Shown here: positions 975 through 30,368 of the stretch, piece by piece
Layout: every line of letters begins with the position of its first letter
Position numbering within the stretch: position 1 is the first letter of the stretch
The notes under the pieces: generated by a model
The model's input: only the letters and a program-made list of their open reading frames with translations
Told to the model about the DNA's origin: nothing
Database searches by the model: none
Source: Candidatus Bathyarchaeota archaeon
GTDB lineage: Archaea > Thermoproteota > CALKCG01 > B24
DNA: 32,000 nucleotides
Assembly (NCBI GenBank): GCA_021161255.1
Contig: JAGHAZ010000044.1
Span: 1-32,000, forward strand
Reading direction: 5' to 3'
Program-made: the position numbers and the translations under genes

Positions 975-2255
975 GTGTGGTGTTTGGCGAAGTCGTCTCG
1001 GATTCCGGGTTTCTACAAGCTCAGTCCTGAGGAAAGGCTACGTGTAGTAGCCGATTTCGCGGGTCTGACCGACGAGGAGATTGCTCTACTTAAGAATACA
1101 GGAAGCTTAGAGCTTAGTCTCGCGGATAGGATGATAGAGAACGTTATAGGGGTTATGCATATACCGCTGGGTGTAGCCGTGAACTTTCTGATAAACGGTA
1201 AAGATTATATGGTGCCTATGGCGATAGAGGAGCCGAGCGTCGTAGCGGCTGCGAGTAACGCGGCTAGAATAGCTAGGGTTAAGGGAGGATTCCAAGCATC
1301 GACGACCAAGCCGATTATGATAGGGCAGATCCAGCTCGTCAAGGTTCCAGACCCCTATGGAGCGAGATACACTATACTAGCCCACAAGGATGAGATACTC
1401 GAGAAGGCTAACGAGCAGGACCCGATACTTGTCAAACTAGGCGGAGGTGCTAAAGACCTGGAGGTCAGGGTTATAGATACGGATGTAGGGCCGATGGTGA
1501 TAACCCATCTTCTAGTCGATGTCAAGGACGCCATGGGAGCCAATGCGGTCAACACGATGGCCGAGGCCGTAGCGCCTATGATCGAGAAGCTTACGGGCGG
1601 CAGGGTGTATCTCCGTATAGTTTCTAACTTAGCCGTCTATAGGCTTGCGAGAGCTAGGGCCGTATTCGATAAAGATGCCTTGGGCGGCGAAGAAGCTGTC
1701 GAGGGGATAATCTACGCGTACAACTTCGCGAAATCAGACCCCTTCAGATGCGCAACCCATAACAAGGGAATAATGAACGGTATAATAGCCGTCGCCTTAG
1801 CCACCGGGAACGACACAAGGGCTTTAGAGTCTGGGGCCCACGCCTACGCCGCCAGGACAGGGAGATACCAGCCCCTAACCACTTGGGAGGTTAACGAAGA
1901 CGGTGACCTAGTGGGCACGATAGAAATACCCTTAGCCGTCGGGATCATAGGCGGCGCGACTAAGTCTAATCCACTCGCGCGGGTATGTCTTAAGATATTG
2001 GGCGTTAAGACAGCTTCTGAACTCGCGGAGGTTATGGCTTCGGTCGGGTTAGCCCAGAACCTAGCGGCCTTAAGGGCTTTAGCCACAGAAGGTATCCAGA
2101 GAGGACATATGAAGTTGCACGCCAGGAACATAGCTATAATGGCGGGAGCGACCGGCCGATTGATAGATGAGGTCGCTCGAAGAATGGTGGAAGAACGTAA
2201 GATAAGGATAGATAGGGCCAAGGAAATACTCGAAGAGCTTTTGAAGAAGGAGTAA
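975..2255 (+). CDS. hmgA: HMG-CoA reductase, class II-type
   Basis: Contains [49 protein letters not shown] and [18 protein letters not shown], matching the NAD(P)H-dependent class II (Pseudomonas mevalonii-type) enzyme. The likely true start is TTG at 984 ([10 protein letters not shown]). Confidence 0.9.
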
Positions 2256-2261
2256 ACTCAA

Positions 2262-2271
2262 TTTTTCTTTT
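2262..2271 (+). terminator. Oligo-T tract downstream of hmgA
   Basis: TTTTTCTTTT lies 7 nt after the stop codon. Oligo-T tracts are the usual archaeal termination signal. Confidence 0.4.
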
Positions 2272-2534
2272 AAGACGCCATACTTATTAACACATCCCCC
2301 ATTTTATTGATGGATTATAGACCCATATCGCGGCGGGTTCTTCTGTGAACGATACTTCCACAGACGCATGGCCTGGAAGCGTAGACACGAATCGATCTCG
2401 GTAAGTAGCGACTTATGGAGACTCCGTAGAAAAAGGAGAAACCCCTAACAACGGATATGTTTCTCGAAAACCAAAATTCTCAACCTAAACGGGAAAGCAC
2501 AAAGTCTGTCTACTTTAGACAATTCTTAACCAAA

Positions 2535-3077
2535 CTACTCAGAGGACCTGTTTTCCGAAGACTCCTTTTTTAATGCGTTTAGCATAGAGGCTAGCATGTT
2601 TAGAAATAGTAGAGCCGCTACGCCTACTACCGTAGCTGCGTATTTCCCCCGCTCTTTCTCTTGCCTGATCATGTTCATTTTCCGAAGCACACTTAGATGG
2701 TGGTAAAGTGCTCCATATTTATCTGAGAACATCTTTTCAAGCTCAGATGCGTACTTTGAGGTTCTCAATTCTTTTAGAAGAACTATTCTAGCAGGATGGG
2801 CTAAGGCTAAAGATAGGTTGGCTAAGTCTTCAGGAGGGAGATTATGGGGAATACCTGCGGTACTGAAGCATCCCGTACTCACATAAGGGGAACCTTTTTC
2901 TTTGGCTATTATTACAGACCATATGTCGTATCCCTCTACTGTAGGAACCTCCTTCTGCATACGGAAAATCCTATCGAGTATTTCATTCTTAGACCCTCCT
3001 TCAAGCTTCTCCACACGTCTCCTCAGCTCAGCTACCTCTTCTTCGATTTTCCTAAGTTTTTCTAAAATTTGGTTCAT
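2535..3077 (-). CDS. Winged-helix (ArsR-like) transcription regulator with N-terminal coiled coil and C-terminal hydrophobic helix
   Basis: The segment LAHPARIVLLKELRTSKYASELEKMFSDKYGALYHHLSVLRKMNMIRQE fits an ArsR/SmtB-type wHTH. The N-terminus (KLRKIEEEVAELRRRVEKLE) is coiled-coil-like, and AATVVGVAALLFLNMLASML looks like a TM helix. Confidence 0.5.
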   Translation of the reverse strand: MNQILEKLRKIEEEVAELRRRVEKLEGGSKNEILDRIFRMQKEVPTVEGYDIWSVIIAKEKGSPYVSTGCFSTAGIPHNLPPEDLANLSLALAHPARIVLLKELRTSKYASELEKMFSDKYGALYHHLSVLRKMNMIRQEKERGKYAATVVGVAALLFLNMLASMLNALKKESSENRSSE

Positions 3078-3222
3078 CTAAAGTGATATACGGGTAAGTA
3101 ATATTTAGGCTTTGAAGTCTCTAGAAGACGAGACTGGTTGAAAAATATAGAGCCGCGTTTTTTTCTAAAAGTTTAATAAGGCTGGTGGTTATTAGGTTTC
3201 ACGCTCGGAAGGGGATGGGGAA

Positions 3223-5445
3223 ATGCCTAGGTATAGGACGACGGCTGAGATACTTAAGATAGTTAAGGATAAGGAGTTTATCCGAAAGACCTGAGGCTCG
3301 ACCTCGGGTCCGGAAGATATAGGAATTATAGCTCATGTAGACCACGGTAAGACTACTATGAGCGATTCTCTTCTAGCTGCCTGCGGCCTGTTATCGCCCT
3401 CGATGGCTGGGCAGGCCTTGGCGTTAGACTATATGGAGGAGGAGCAGAAGAGACAGATGACGATAAAGGCGGCTAACATAAGCCTCTACTACGAGTACGA
3501 GAACAAGCCGTATGTGATCAACCTGATCGATACTCCTGGTCACATAGACTTCACAGGTAAGGTTACCCGGTCTCTCAGAGCGATAGACGGGGCCATAGTT
3601 GTGGTGGACGCAGTCGAAGGTGTTATGACCCAGACGGAGACCGTTACCAGACAGGCATTAGAAGAGAGAGTCAGACCGGTTCTATACATAAATAAGATCG
3701 ACCGGTTGATCAACGAGCTTAAGCTGAGCCCCCAAGGCGTCCAAGAAGTCATAGTCAGGATAATCAAGGACTTCAACCGTCTTATCGAGATGTACGCCGA
3801 GCCTGAATACAGGAAGATCTGGAAGGTAAGCTTCTCAAACAACAACGTAGCCCTCGGTTCGGCTAAACATAGGTGGGGTTTCACCCTCAGGGTGGCTCAG
3901 GAGAAGGGTGTAAAGTTCTCAGATGTCGTGGCGGCTTATAAGGAGGGAAACGTGGAGGAGCTTAGGAAAGCCGTTCCGCTTCACGAAGCTATACTCGACA
4001 TGGTCGTGGAGCATCTACCGTCTCCACCCGTAGCCCAGAAGTATAGGATACCTAAGATCTGGCACGGAGACCTATCTTCAGAGGTGGGTAAGGCGATGCT
4101 TGAATGCGACGACGATGGGCCTGTCGTCATGTGTATCTCGAACGTAACCGTCGACCCTCAAGCCGGTGTCGTAGCGACGGGAAGACTATTCTCAGGGGTT
4201 ATAAACGCCGGAGATACCGTTCACCTCATAGGAGCTAGGGCGACCGGTAGGGTTCAGCAGGTATGCATCTATATGGGGCCATACAGGGAGATCGTCGGTA
4301 GCCTGCCGGCAGGGAACATACCGGCTTTACTGGGGCTCGATAAGGCTAGGGCTGGTGAAACGATAGCCTCTATCCCCGATGTGGTGCCCTTTGAAGCCGT
4401 TAGATATGTTACAGAGCCTGTCGTGACCATAGCTATAGAGCCGAAGTATAGTAGAGACCTGCCTAAGCTTGTCGACGTGCTGAACAAGCTGACTATAGAG
4501 GATCCCAACTTGGTGGCTAGGATAGACCAGGAAAGCGGTGAGTATCTCCTCTCGGGTATAGGTCAGGTTCACCTCGAGATCGCGTTAACGCTCATACAGA
4601 AAACGGGTCTAGAGATCATAACCTCGCCGCCGACCGTTATATACAGGGAGAGCATCAGAAAACCCGCAGGGCCTTTCATGGCTAAATCGCCGAACAGACA
4701 CAACAGGGTTTACATAAGCGTTGAGCCCCTAGACCCGCAGATTGTGGAGCTTATAACCTCGGGTAAACTCAACGATACTATGGATAGGAGGAGCATAGCT
4801 AAACTCCTCAGAAGCTACGGGTGGCCTGCGGAGGAGGCTAGGAACGTCTATGGGATAGACCCTCACGGATGCATCTTCGTAGACCGTTCTAAGGGCGTCC
4901 AATATCTCAACGAGGTCCGAGATTACATGGTCTCAGGCTTCATATCAGCCATGGATGATGGCCCGCTTACGAGGGAATACGTCAGAGGCGTCAAAGTCAA
5001 CTTAGAAAACGCTGAGCTACACTCAGACCCGGCTCATAGAGGCCCGGCTCAGATAATACCTATGGTTCGTAGAGCCATCTACGCGGGTCTACTCTCAGCG
5101 GATCCGATACTCCTAGAGCCGATAATGAAGCTTGTAGCCAGAGCCCCAGCCGAGATGGTCGGTGTCCTAACTAAGATACTGACAAGCAGAAGGGGACGCG
5201 TATTATCTATAGAGCAGAGAGAATATGTGGTTCACGTCGAGGGAGAGATACCGGCCGCGGAGACGTTCGACTTGGCCGACGTAATAAGGTCTTCTACATC
5301 GGGTAAGGCCTTCTGGAGCCTACCGTTCTCCAGATGGGCGCCGGTGCCATCGTCGCTAATGCCTAAGCTCATACGTGAGATAAGGCAGCGTAAAGGACTA
5401 TCGCCAGAGCCGCCTAGACCAGAAGACTTCATGGATAGAGAGTAG
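3223..5445 (+). CDS. fusA: Translation elongation factor aEF-2, interrupted by a 30-nt BHB-type intron (exons 3223..3286 and 3317..5445)
   Basis: The ATG at 3223 encodes MPRYRTTAEILKIVKDKEFIR, the canonical crenarchaeal aEF-2 N-terminus. An in-frame TGA lies at 3292. The G1/P-loop ([13 protein letters not shown]) resumes at 3319 in the same frame. The rest matches aEF-2 throughout (DTPGHIDF, NKIDR, diphthamide site HSDPAHRGPAQI). The ORF-track start at 3358 would lack the P-loop. Confidence 0.9.
3287..3316 (+). other. Putative bulge-helix-bulge (BHB) intron within the aEF-2 mRNA
   Basis: The RNA reads UCCG(3281-84) AAA(3285-87) GACCUGAGG(3288-96) CUCGA(3297-3301) CCUCGGGUC(3302-10) CGGA(3311-14) AGA(3315-17). 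This gives a 4-bp helix (UCCG/CGGA) flanked by two 3-nt bulges on opposite strands, plus a 9-bp closing hairpin. Cutting after the second nucleotide of each bulge removes 30 nt and yields CGA AAU AUA GGA, which encodes R-N-I-G. Confidence 0.7.
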
Positions 5446-26706: not shown

Positions 26707-27324
26707 TTAAACCACCTCGATCCTATAGATGTAAACCTCAAACTTGTAAACCCTCTTTTCATGGAACGGGAAAATCCTAGGTATCGTCATCAAAGCCTTA
26801 AACACGGCCGATATTGAACCACCATGATCCTCTACAAACCTCCTAATAAACCCATCAGTCTCGCTCTTGTGGATCGTATAGACGACGCTACCTAGCTCCA
26901 TAGCCTTTTTCAGGAAAACCCTATCCGCTCCTCTCAATCCAGTTCCAAACGGAGGGTTCTGTAGAACGGTGTGACATGAACCTTGGAACACGGCGATGTC
27001 GCACAGAACCCAGTCGACTCTATTCGAGACCTCGGTCTCATATGCGTTTAACTTTGCTACGTTCAAGGCGATCCTGTCGATGTCTAAACCTATCACGTAG
27101 TCGGCTCCGAGAAGAGCCGCTCCTATGGCCAGCCTACCGGTTCCACATCCCAAGTCGAAGACCACTTTACCTACTATATCGTCATATCGATAGGCGGCTA
27201 GGGTCAGAATCTTCGCAGCTAGGTCAGCCGGTATGGTATATTGCTCCAAAAGCCGACTGGGTGAGGGGTGGCCACGGAGTTTACTCAATACGATTTCAAG
27301 GTGTTTACGTTTGAGACGACTCAC
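26707..27324 (-). CDS. COG2263-type N6-adenine RNA methyltransferase (METTL5-like)
   Basis: Contains VFDLGCGTGRLAIGAALLGA (SAM motif I) and LQNPPFG (motif IV). Its position in the superoperon is conserved. Confidence 0.75.
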   Translation of the reverse strand: MSRLKRKHLEIVLSKLRGHPSPSRLLEQYTIPADLAAKILTLAAYRYDDIVGKVVFDLGCGTGRLAIGAALLGADYVIGLDIDRIALNVAKLNAYETEVSNRVDWVLCDIAVFQGSCHTVLQNPPFGTGLRGADRVFLKKAMELGSVVYTIHKSETDGFIRRFVEDHGGSISAVFKALMTIPRIFPFHEKRVYKFEVYIYRIEVV

Positions 27325-28306
27325 CGATATACTCCTCCCAGCGTATCAGTCCCAAAGCCACCAGCAACTCGGCAGGGCTTAGTATAGGCTTACTCAGTCT
27401 TTCAGAATCCTCAAGCGAGAGTCTCGGACACGCCGTGTTTACGAACACGTCTATCCAGGTGTAAGCCTCCAGCATAGACGCATCCAGGTAGTTGAAACCC
27501 AGTAGATAGGCCTCTCTACCCAAGCTCTCTATGAGGCTCTTCAACCCCTCAGCCTGTCCAAGTCTGAACTGTCCAGGCTCTAGGCCGACCAGTATGCCGA
27601 ACACCTCACCATCTCTAGCCTCGACTATCGACGCGTATCTACGTCGTAAGTACCTACGCTTTAAATCTCTCATATCTCTCAGAGAACAGGTTAGCGGGTT
27701 TAAAGCCATCACAGGCTTACTGGTCAGCAGGGATAAACCGAGGGGGTGGAATAGACCCCCGCCTATGAAGAGAAAACCCTCCACCCGGTTTTCGACCTCT
27801 AGGGGGGAGGTATAGTTGCATCCTAAGACTTGACCAGGATACTTTACGCCGCTGCCACGTCCTATAAACACCTTCAAGCCCCATTCTTCCAGAGTCTTAC
27901 GAGCCTCCTCTAGATATCCGATAAACTGGAGGCTAGAGAATAGGCCTAAGCTACGGAACCTTAAGAGGGTTTCCTTGAACCTTTCGAGACACCCATTCTC
28001 TCGAACGATATATTGCGCATCCAAGTATACGACAGGTATACGGCTTGAGGAAACCATGGGGCTATGACCCACGTGGACGATCAGGTCTACGTTCAACATC
28101 TCAGCTTCTCGTAGGGCTAAGTTACACGCTCCATAGCATGGATTACCTGAAAGAAGAACCGTGACGCCTAACTCCCTAAGCTTATCGACCATCGGTTTAA
28201 GATAAGGCCTTAAACCCTCCGGAGCTTGAACGAGAACACGTTTAGAACCTCTGGATGAAACCTCGTTTAGAACCTTATCCTCATCAAGCCTGAAGATCCT
28301 GAACAC
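27305..28306 (-). CDS. dph2: Diphthamide biosynthesis radical-SAM enzyme Dph2 (2-(3-amino-3-carboxypropyl)histidine synthase)
   Basis: Has a three-domain Dph2 layout (VLVQAPEGLRPY...CYGACN...VHVGHS...FVNTACPR) with conserved Cys residues. Confidence 0.85.
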   Translation of the reverse strand: MFRIFRLDEDKVLNEVSSRGSKRVLVQAPEGLRPYLKPMVDKLRELGVTVLLSGNPCYGACNLALREAEMLNVDLIVHVGHSPMVSSSRIPVVYLDAQYIVRENGCLERFKETLLRFRSLGLFSSLQFIGYLEEARKTLEEWGLKVFIGRGSGVKYPGQVLGCNYTSPLEVENRVEGFLFIGGGLFHPLGLSLLTSKPVMALNPLTCSLRDMRDLKRRYLRRRYASIVEARDGEVFGILVGLEPGQFRLGQAEGLKSLIESLGREAYLLGFNYLDASMLEAYTWIDVFVNTACPRLSLEDSERLSKPILSPAELLVALGLIRWEEYIGESSQT

Positions 28307-29803: not shown

Positions 29804-30368
29804 TCAACCCTTAACGAAGAGCCTGTATTTCGGCCTCTCCTCCATAAGCTCCTCCAGGACTCTCTTGGCTATGAGCTTCACAGGGTCGGGGATGCCGGCT
29901 CTAGATTTTATATCCTTGAACGATTCGAACGGTCTGATGCTACGCTCCCTGAGGATCGCGAACATATACTTCTTACCTATGCCGGGTATAAGCTCCAGAG
30001 CATGCATCCTAGGACTTACAGGCTGAGACTTATTGAAGAAATCGACGAACCTCTCCTCGTTGGCCACTATTATTCTCTCGATTATATCCGGAAGCTCAGC
30101 CTGAGCAGGACCAGTCAGCTCATAATAGTTCAGACGGCCGACTATGAAAGCCACCTTACTCTCAGGGCTTCTACCCAGGAAAAGCCTCTCACCTATCGAT
30201 ACGGATACACCTCGCTTGAGAACAGCCTCCAGAAGCGTGAAATACTTATCGCCTAAGCTCCACAGCCCTACCGGCTAGTTGAGCCGGTCTAGGAACCCTC
30301 CTAGTCGGCCTAGGGAGAATATCTAGGACATAGCCGTACTCTTCGTAAAACCTATGATAGCCTCTCAA
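29804..30368 (-). CDS. DUF655 (COG1491) OB-fold + HhH RNA/nucleotide-binding protein, reading frame interrupted near 30250-30290
   Basis: TTG at 30368 opens (M)RGYHRFYEEYGYVLDILPRPTRRVPRPAQLAGRAVELRR*. The next frame continues LGDKYFTLLEAVLKRGVSVSIGERLFLG...VAFIVGRLNYYELT... into the ORF-track ORF 29804..30154 (NEERFVDFFNKSQPVSPRMHALELIPGIGKK). Both halves are conserved DUF655 sequence. Confidence 0.8.

Follow-up and report, generated by a model that had tools for sequence, protein, structure and literature searches.

The 32,000-nt stretch analysed here (the window; positions 1 to 32,000 of contig JAGHAZ010000044.1 from a Candidatus Bathyarchaeota archaeon) contains a gene for the archaeal elongation factor aEF-2, whose coding sequence is interrupted directly in front of the P-loop by what is probably a short bulge-helix-bulge (BHB) intron (Table 1). 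Twenty-one sense codons starting from ATG 3223 on the plus strand encode MPRYRTTAEILKIVKDKEFIR and are followed by AAG ACC TGA (Lys-Thr-stop, with the stop codon at 3292-3294), which leaves 23 codons to be read from the unspliced RNA. The coding sequence of the P-loop restarts at 3319, in the same frame as ATG 3223, and by reading of the sequence no in-frame ATG, GTG or TTG is present between the TGA and the P-loop. The only long open reading frame (ORF) begins at ATG 3358. It matches TIGR00490, the NCBIfam equivalog model of aEF-2 with a curated cut-off of 738 bits, at positions 35-720 only, and thus lacks the P-loop. Removal of the 30 nt at 3287-3316 joins the last A of the first exon with AU to form an Asn codon, and the conceptually spliced product of 730 residues matches TIGR00490 from position 5 to 720 in one stretch, scoring 870.5 bits. 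The nearest relative of this protein belongs to 'Ca. Bathyarchaeota archaeon B24' (98% protein identity). An earlier sequence-only reading of this DNA had described the exon at ATG 3223, the Lys-Thr-stop and the P-loop at 3319, had expected a start at ATG 3358 to give an EF-2 devoid of its P-loop, and had proposed that excision of 3287-3316 restores the Asn codon; all of this holds, both on the sequence and in the extent of the two TIGR00490 matches.

The interrupted region is predicted to fold as UCCG, bulge AAA, GACCUGAGG, loop CUCGA, CCUCGGGUC, CGGA and bulge AGA. The central helix, the AAA bulge and the 9-bp hairpin together constitute the RNAfold centroid for 3265-3335, while the AGA at 3315-17 represents the second bulge, closed by the pairs A3280-U3318 and U3279-A3319. 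The centroid confirms the 4-bp helix, the two 3-nt bulges on opposite strands and the 9-bp hairpin with one G-U pair that the sequence-only reading had described. The order of the strands matches that of pre-tRNA, namely the exon-side central strand, a bulge, the hairpin, the intron-side central strand and the other bulge. Cuts placed behind the second base of both bulges excise the 30 nt, in line with the cut between bulge bases 2 and 3 that is the rule for cbf5 and tRNA introns (PMC2738675). In the strict hBHBh' form both outer helices contain at least two Watson-Crick pairs (PMC7714728), and the intron-side helix h' of the window has 9 bp where at least 2 bp are required.

Scanning one-genome-per-species archaeal and bacterial contigs yielded 79 aEF-2 loci. 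With the window counted in, an insert lies at the same codon in 45 loci; these loci encode Bathyarchaeia-type aEF-2 and come from many independent projects and assemblies. Another locus, L038, is likewise intron-bearing, giving 46 loci with the window. The sequence-only reading had raised the question whether the insertion is lineage-specific, and alignment of the relatives answers it in the negative, the insertion being widespread in Bathyarchaeia. The 44 distinct introns are 25-44 nt long and all contain an in-frame stop codon, and 34 of the 45 intron lengths are not multiples of three, so that exon 1 and exon 2 usually lie in different genomic frames. One rule for the cuts, with position 2 of the Asn codon as the fixed 3' cut and a complementary 4-mer as the only requirement upstream, gives a colinear aEF-2 at all 45 loci. 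It restores [IVL]R-N-[IM]G[IV] followed by the AHVDHGKTT P-loop in 44 of them, and R-D-VG, with Asp in place of Asn, in L042. Both bulges measure 3 nt at every one of the 45 loci. The intron interior folded alone forms the hairpin in nearly all 45, with weak hairpins (about -2 kcal/mol) in L026 and L061.

The bases around the predicted cuts differ sharply in their conservation. The 5' bulge reads AAA at 39 loci, AAU at three, UAA at two and AGA at one. Its second base, the last base of exon 1, is A at 44 of the 45 loci, and the first base of exon 2 (base 3 of the 3' bulge and position 2 of the Asn codon) is A at all 45. The last intron base, base 2 of the 3' bulge, takes all four values (U16, G14, A11, C4), so unspliced in-frame reading would place D, N, Y or H at the invariant Asn position. 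Moreover, intron-bearing genes use only CGA (43) and CGU (2) for the Arg codon that supplies half of the central helix, compared with AGG 14, CGA 5, CGG 3, CGU 3, AGA 3 and CGC 2 in the intron-less ones. This Arg codon usage is a sign of constraint by the RNA structure on the coding sequence. Variation in exon 1 across the 45 loci amounts to 116/66/297 by codon position and is concentrated at third positions, which argues that exon 1 is translated.

Covariation was measured on a MAFFT alignment of the 44 distinct intron sequences. The central 4-bp helix is paired in all 44, its second pair being C-G in 34, U-A in nine and G-C in one, and all nine hairpin pairs vary on both sides across the loci. 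Overall, changes on both sides are found at 11 of 15 pairs. Double-change cells number 78, compared with 24.7 in shuffles, and none of 500 shuffles reaches the observed value. The real structure pairs 82% of the cells; sliding the partners by one column lowers this to about 50%, and no slid version exceeds 52%. Without guidance, RNAalifold recovers the same helices together with the 3-nt bulge. In addition, L038 scores 59 bits with a covariance model of this alignment, on which the model was not trained for that locus, and the model finds no other copy in 617 kb of the window plus the loci. The innermost pair of the exon-side helix h, between the first base of the Ile/Val codon and the third base of the Asn codon, is A-U in 38 cases, G-C in four and of other kinds in two. 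This pattern of compensatory changes points to a BHB structure that is maintained by selection.

The first in-frame stop codon is also fixed in position: 43 of the 44 distinct introns have it three codons past Arg (UAG 35, UAA 5, UGA 3). It is located inside the covarying hairpin (alignment columns 18-20), and the partner strand changes to match it. The stop codon itself thus appears to be selected, and its likely role is the rapid release of ribosomes that enter unspliced RNA.

In one hot-spring lineage, the sequence occurs both with the intron and without it. Its 90% cluster, 85% identical to the window protein, contains many members of 695 aa and one of 730 aa, P0254. The latter is encoded by contigs of 15.8 and 15.5 kb from the Logan assemblies of SRR28530379 (L094) and SRR28530378 (L095). 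The intron-bearing counterparts, L096 (SRR28530381) and L097 (SRR28530383), encode P0125, which by eye equals residues 36-730 of P0254. Contigs with and without the intron share neighbouring genes on both strands, and their DNA matches over 6,844 + 8,977 nt (~15.8 kb) except for exactly 31 nt and three single-base differences. Each of the latter is private to one contig and none is common to both intron-less contigs, and no single-base variant linked to intron status was found between the contigs of SRR28530378/79 and those of SRR28530381/83. The missing 31 nt are the BHB-defined intron, leaving the junction AUU CGA A/AU AUA GG (L090/L094; the slash marks the joint). Slippage at the longest flanking repeat, CGAAA, would by a count by hand delete 29 nt and not the observed 31. 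If their libraries are of RNA, the intron-less contigs represent spliced mRNA; otherwise they hold an allele from which the intron was very recently and precisely lost. Both origins confirm the predicted boundaries, and only an RNA origin would prove splicing. No tRNA that could serve as an internal control is present within the 15.8-kb contigs, and the literature search found no published mention of the run accessions SRR28530378-83.

Taken together, the exact repair of the gene, the common cut rule, the covarying structure, the purifying selection on exon 1 and the natural sequence from which just the predicted intron is missing support the BHB intron that the sequence-only reading had postulated. 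We conclude, with a probability of about 0.88, that aEF-2 is split by an obligatory 30-nt BHB intron, located in phase 1 of the conserved Asn codon preceding the P-loop, which is cut by the splicing endonuclease EndA and whose exons are ligated by RtcB. We infer the two enzymes, and splicing in vivo, by analogy with known systems; neither an EndA nor an RtcB gene is found in the 32-kb window. In the pre-mRNA, UCCG at the end of exon 1 would pair with CGGA near the 3' end of the intron, so that 4 bp would separate a 3-nt bulge on one strand from a 3-nt bulge on the other, with the 9-bp intron hairpin and the minimal 2-bp exon helix on the outside. EndA would then cut after the second base of each bulge, between 3286 and 3287 and between 3316 and 3317, and an RtcB-type ligase would join the exons, the intron being probably circularised. 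The spliced mRNA would encode the full 730-aa aEF-2, and the unspliced RNA would give a 23-residue peptide only, owing to the positionally conserved stop in the hairpin.

Several observations weigh against this reading. The local fold is only modestly better than that of shuffled sequences (z = -2.0), and a count of BHB-shaped motifs whose hairpin has 9 bp or more, with G-U pairs allowed, gives 6 for the window and 7.35 for shuffles. The BHB shape alone is not evidence; the motif gains its significance from the exact frame repair and from the conservation and covariation in the relatives. The exon-side helix h is weak, with two A-U pairs in the window, which just reaches the two Watson-Crick pairs of the strict form, and 1 bp in most relatives, the second pair forming in only 6 of 44. 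With h limited to 1-2 bp, most family members are relaxed motifs that fall short of the strict hBHBh' form and would depend on an endonuclease of broad specificity. An (alpha-beta)2 endonuclease of this type occurs mainly in TACK archaea, including Bathyarchaeota (PMC7714728), and relaxed BHB motifs of cbf5 are cut by hetero-oligomeric EndA (PMC2738675, PMC7714728). Furthermore, the intron-less contigs of SRR28530378/79 span genes on both strands and could stem from DNA, as an allele that has lost the intron precisely, instead of from cDNA. Searches for other spliced forms found none. A degenerate spliced-junction pattern, which fits 37 of the 45 sequences after conceptual splicing and none of the genomic loci collected by then, gave four matches over JGI metagenome contigs, all from a single intron-less genomic lineage and one of them on an 89-kb contig, so that they were rejected as cDNA. 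Nine conceptually spliced proteins were looked up by exact match in the protein collection, and all were absent. A profile search with spliced N-termini returned short proteins only, none of which is more than 90% identical to an intron-bearing lineage and spans the intron-free junction.

Among the alternatives, excision of the 30 nt from the RNA by another nuclease and ligase, or by self-cleavage, has the best standing and is still very unlikely. The sub-canonical outer helix speaks for it, but the conserved geometry is exactly that of an EndA substrate, for which cbf5 provides a precedent (PMC2738675, PMC7714728). Introns of 25-44 nt also fall far short of the size of group I or group II ribozymes. 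Slightly more remote is translational recoding, in which no splicing would occur and ribosomes would instead hop across the gap of about 30 nt or change frame, as known from phage T4 gene 60. The stop codon soon after the break and the stable hairpin in the gap do resemble the bypass signals of gene 60. Matched in-frame take-off and landing codons are missing, however, and landing in the P-loop frame would keep the variable D, N, Y or H instead of Asn. The gap varies between 25 and 44 nt, the conserved and covarying element is a 4-bp helix with two 3-nt bulges that has no role in bypassing, and contigs without exactly the BHB-defined 31 nt exist. The least probable explanation, that nothing is spliced and the locus is a pseudogene, an assembly artefact or a source of a P-loop-less protein from ATG 3358 (possibly with the 23-aa peptide), could appeal to the 695-aa (MSDSLL start) and 680-aa (B24) proteins listed in databases and to the EF-2 paralogues of a few Bathyarchaeota (PMC6143161), but it is strongly disfavoured, being at odds with the same interruption in 45 independent assemblies, with the conservation as protein of exon 1 and of a P-loop segment that no in-frame ATG, GTG or TTG after the stop makes translatable, with a spliced protein above the equivalog cut-off, with the Dph2 gene in the same window and the SDPAHRGPAQ motif in aEF-2, and with the established inability of a GTPase without P-loop to bind GTP.

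An endonuclease-spliced aEF-2 intron would have its closest counterpart in the cbf5 pre-mRNA intron of Desulfurococcales and Sulfolobales (Watanabe 2002; Yoshinari 2006; Yokobori 2009, PMC2738675). Both are short introns in an archaeal coding gene of a TACK lineage, both split the codon of a key conserved residue in phase 1, often with a relaxed BHB cut between bulge bases 2 and 3, and both show a phylogenetic pattern of gain and loss. The aEF-2 intron differs in its host gene, an essential translocase, in its lineage, Bathyarchaeia, and in the positionally conserved in-frame stop within the intron hairpin, and aEF-2 has at least three distinct insertion sites. Splicing of cbf5 was shown experimentally, whereas the aEF-2 intron is known here from sequences. 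With the hBHBh' motifs of pre-tRNA and pre-rRNA, processed by EndA and RtcB, it shares the 3-4-3 geometry and strand topology seen for introns at tRNA position 37/38, the location of the predicted cuts and an intron side closed by a hairpin (definition in PMC7714728). Unlike them, the aEF-2 substrate is an mRNA, the exon-side helix consists of 1-2 bp of codon bases, and the central helix uses coding sequence, placing a constraint on the Ile and Arg codons. The 5'UTR (5' untranslated region) BHB intron of Haloferax volcanii HVO_1309 is likewise an mRNA substrate outside tRNA and rRNA, and its removal appears to be needed for efficient expression (PMC7714728). That intron lies in an untranslated leader, whereas the one in aEF-2 breaks the coding sequence, and splicing would be required for any protein at all. 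HAC1/XBP1, spliced by Ire1 and either tRNA ligase or RtcB, also has a short, structure-defined, non-spliceosomal mRNA intron with tRNA-type ligation (PMC13149111), and its spliced and unspliced RNAs yield different translation products. It differs in its nuclease Ire1, which recognises stem-loops, in its eukaryotic hosts and in its demonstrated regulatory role.

The literature agrees with the statement of the sequence-only reading that cbf5 is essentially the sole documented protein-coding case. In 2020, the cbf5 intron was described as the only additional archaeal BHB intron reported, apart from the 5'UTR intron in Haloferax (PMC7714728). A paper on EF-2 evolution that covers Bathyarchaeota makes no mention of an intron in the gene (PMC6143161). 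Our search, with subscription-only papers outside its reach, found no literature combining bulge-helix-bulge, EF-2 and archaea, and the only literature found to pair Bathyarchaeia with BHB motifs concerns rRNA circularisation. As far as we have seen, the aEF-2 BHB intron is unreported.

Public annotation reflects the interruption. Relatives in the protein database with at least 72% identity are all 673-695 aa long, cover 92-95% of the query and are named 'elongation factor EF-2', and the fetched members of this set start at a Met after the P-loop. Full-length database proteins are found only at 67% identity or less and come from intron-less lineages. The B24 record KYH37041.1 has 680 aa, and other intron-bearing records have 695 aa and begin with MSDSLL. 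All public aEF-2 entries examined from intron-bearing relatives (top matches and clusters) are truncated or mis-started, most of them without the P-loop. Some of the affected records, which include KYH37041.1, MEM1569289.1 and MEM3546554.1, are 680-695 aa long and start after the P-loop, and others of 702-718 aa start inside the intron or the P-loop segment. Such truncated records affect annotation, marker-gene alignments and the EF-2 phylogeny of the Bathyarchaeia group.

The distribution of the intron was read from a neighbour-joining protein tree, a distance tree whose deep branches were not relied on. The intron between the Arg and Asn codons (the R-N site) is found in most sampled Bathyarchaeia branches, and is absent from Aigarchaeota (Caldarchaeales), Wolframiiraptor, Hecatellales and the Bathyarchaeia loci L012, L028, L064 and L074. 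The tree places the intron-less L012 among intron-bearing lineages, and an intron-less soil lineage picked up by the spliced-junction pattern (L081-L084, for example Ga0209058_1000041) retains the AUC CGA AAU codons typical of intron-bearing genes. This pattern fits an old gain followed by several precise losses.

Two further putative BHB insertions were found in aEF-2 genes that have no R-N-site intron. In L010 (JAVZFM010000049.1, Bathyarchaeia bin DRTY-6_201803_bins_58), a 42-nt insert at 252-293 lies between IIAH and VDHGK, inside the P-loop. Its motif (246-294) consists of GCCC, bulge AUA, a 9-bp hairpin, GGGC and bulge AGG, with z = -4.6, and canonical cuts lead to a complete ORF of 728 aa. 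In L080 (JGI 3300022551, Ga0212089_10116754), a 31-nt insert at 494-524 is located at DTPG/H in switch II. Here the motif (487-525) comprises CGCC, bulge AGA, a 7-bp hairpin, GGCG and bulge AAG, with z = -4.05, and canonical cuts restore DTPGHIDFTG and a frame that stays open to the contig end. Each of these two sites is known from one contig, and they are leads rather than established families. All three BHB sites fall within the most conserved G-domain motifs of aEF-2. Other breaks near DTPG were considered as introns of the third site and rejected, as they reflect adapter read-through (P0016), an unrelated insertion or chimera (P0030) and a chimeric end (P0053).

The P-loop of some relatives carries yet another kind of insert. 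In L038 (~1189-3208) and L053 (~1171-3208), a large insert starts with Cys right after AHVDHGK, and DTPGH follows ~2 kb downstream. These inserts look like inteins in the P-loop (GK/C). L038, from Bathyarchaeia, has both the BHB intron and the intein-like insert, and L053, from Ca. Calditenuis, has the insert only. Two Logan proteins of ~1,300 aa in a related cluster may carry the same intein-like insert.

It is possible, though we consider it unlikely, that BHB mini-introns have colonised coding genes of Bathyarchaeia, with at least three sites in aEF-2, and that the R-N-site intron acts as a kinetic gate on aEF-2 synthesis. As the BHB consists partly of exon 1 codons, ~58 nt past the start, with a conserved stop as a fail-safe, competition for the same RNA might, speculatively, arise between the first translating ribosome and the endonuclease. 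Low aEF-2 levels or slow translocation might then favour splicing, and fast translocation might unfold the motif. If true, this would constitute an autoregulatory loop, and aEF-2 production would also be tied to tRNA-splicing capacity.

For more than 20 years cbf5 has been quoted as the sole archaeal coding gene with a BHB intron (PMC7714728). Obligatory splicing of an essential and highly expressed translation GTPase would take endonuclease-dependent mRNA splicing beyond one gene and show that it is no crenarchaeal curiosity. The aEF-2 intron is conserved across a major uncultivated class, with extra sites in the same gene, and would offer a natural substrate for the action of EndA and RtcB on mRNA and for the study of how splicing coexists with coupled transcription-translation. 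It also raises the question by which route such introns enter the most conserved motifs, the same P-loop being shared by intein-like inserts in some relatives.

The features of the aEF-2 locus are listed in Table 1. The TTTAATAA box and the G-rich stretch are candidates for the promoter and the ribosome-binding region of exon 1, and AT-rich boxes resembling TTTAATAA are also located 5' of exon 1 in relatives.

Table 1. Features of the interrupted aEF-2 gene and its predicted intron (positions in the window).
Feature	Position	Strand	Remarks
TATA-like box TTTAATAA	3172..3179	+	~47 nt 5' of ATG; by eye
G-rich stretch GGAAGGGGATGGGG	directly 5' of start codon	+	by eye
Exon 1 of aEF-2	3223..3286	+	21 codons and first base of Asn codon
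Outer exon-side helix h, 5' strand	3279..3280	+	pairs U3279-A3319 and A3280-U3318
Central 4-bp helix, exon-side strand UCCG	3281..3284	+	last base of Ile codon and CG of Arg codon
5' bulge AAA	3285..3287	+	predicted cut between 3286 and 3287
Intron, 30 nt (predicted)	3287..3316	+	BHB cut rule
Intron-side helix h', 9 bp	3288-3296 with 3302-3310	+	GACCUGAGG with CCUCGGGUC; one G-U pair; loop CUCGA 3297-3301
In-frame stop TGA inside h'	3292..3294	+	ends translation of unspliced RNA
Central 4-bp helix, intron-side strand CGGA	3311..3314	+	
3' bulge AGA	3315..3317	+	predicted cut between 3316 and 3317
Outer helix h, 3' strand (U3318, A3319)	3318..3319	+	
Exon 2 of aEF-2	3317..5445	+	last two bases of Asn codon, P-loop and remainder through stop codon

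Some records required separate assessment. Two intron-bearing loci with Bathyarchaeia-type aEF-2, L018 (DATKOK010000147.1) and L020 (DATIYC010000210.1), are filed under bacterial names, as is P0224, an archaeal aEF-2 of the Bathyarchaeia type. The names on these three records are Methylomirabilota, Acidiferrales and [Eubacterium] cellulosolvens, and they are probably binning or contamination errors. L078 was considered as a locus without the N-terminal half of the gene and has a run of N in the scaffold instead. P0013, a candidate for read-through of the intron, was set aside, since AA stands in its contig in place of the AAA of the relatives' 5' bulge, a difference taken as a 1-nt indel error.

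Further introns in the window were sought by a scan combining BHB motifs with ORF rescue. It gave 72 matches over both strands, compared with 13-26 per single-strand shuffle, and singled out the aEF-2 site only. A 9-bp BHB-like motif at 26155-26119 on the minus strand was rejected as an intron, being merely the overlap of complete Csl4 and RpoL-like genes. The DUF655 gene (30368-29804, minus strand) is split in two frames, its N-terminal ORF ending at 30246 and its C-terminal part continuing from ~30270, with a 7-bp hairpin ACCGGCU/AGCCGGU at the frame switch. No canonical BHB fits this split (near 30250-30300, minus strand), for which a frameshift, an assembly error and a non-canonical element are possible explanations.

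The window also contains a Dph2-type gene for diphthamide synthesis (27305-28306, minus strand), located 22 kb from aEF-2 and clustered with the genes for L10e, KsgA, Csl4, an RpoL-like ORF and Pus10. The aEF-2 translation contains SDPAHRGPAQ, which we take to be the His-Arg-Gly motif holding the diphthamide-modified histidine.

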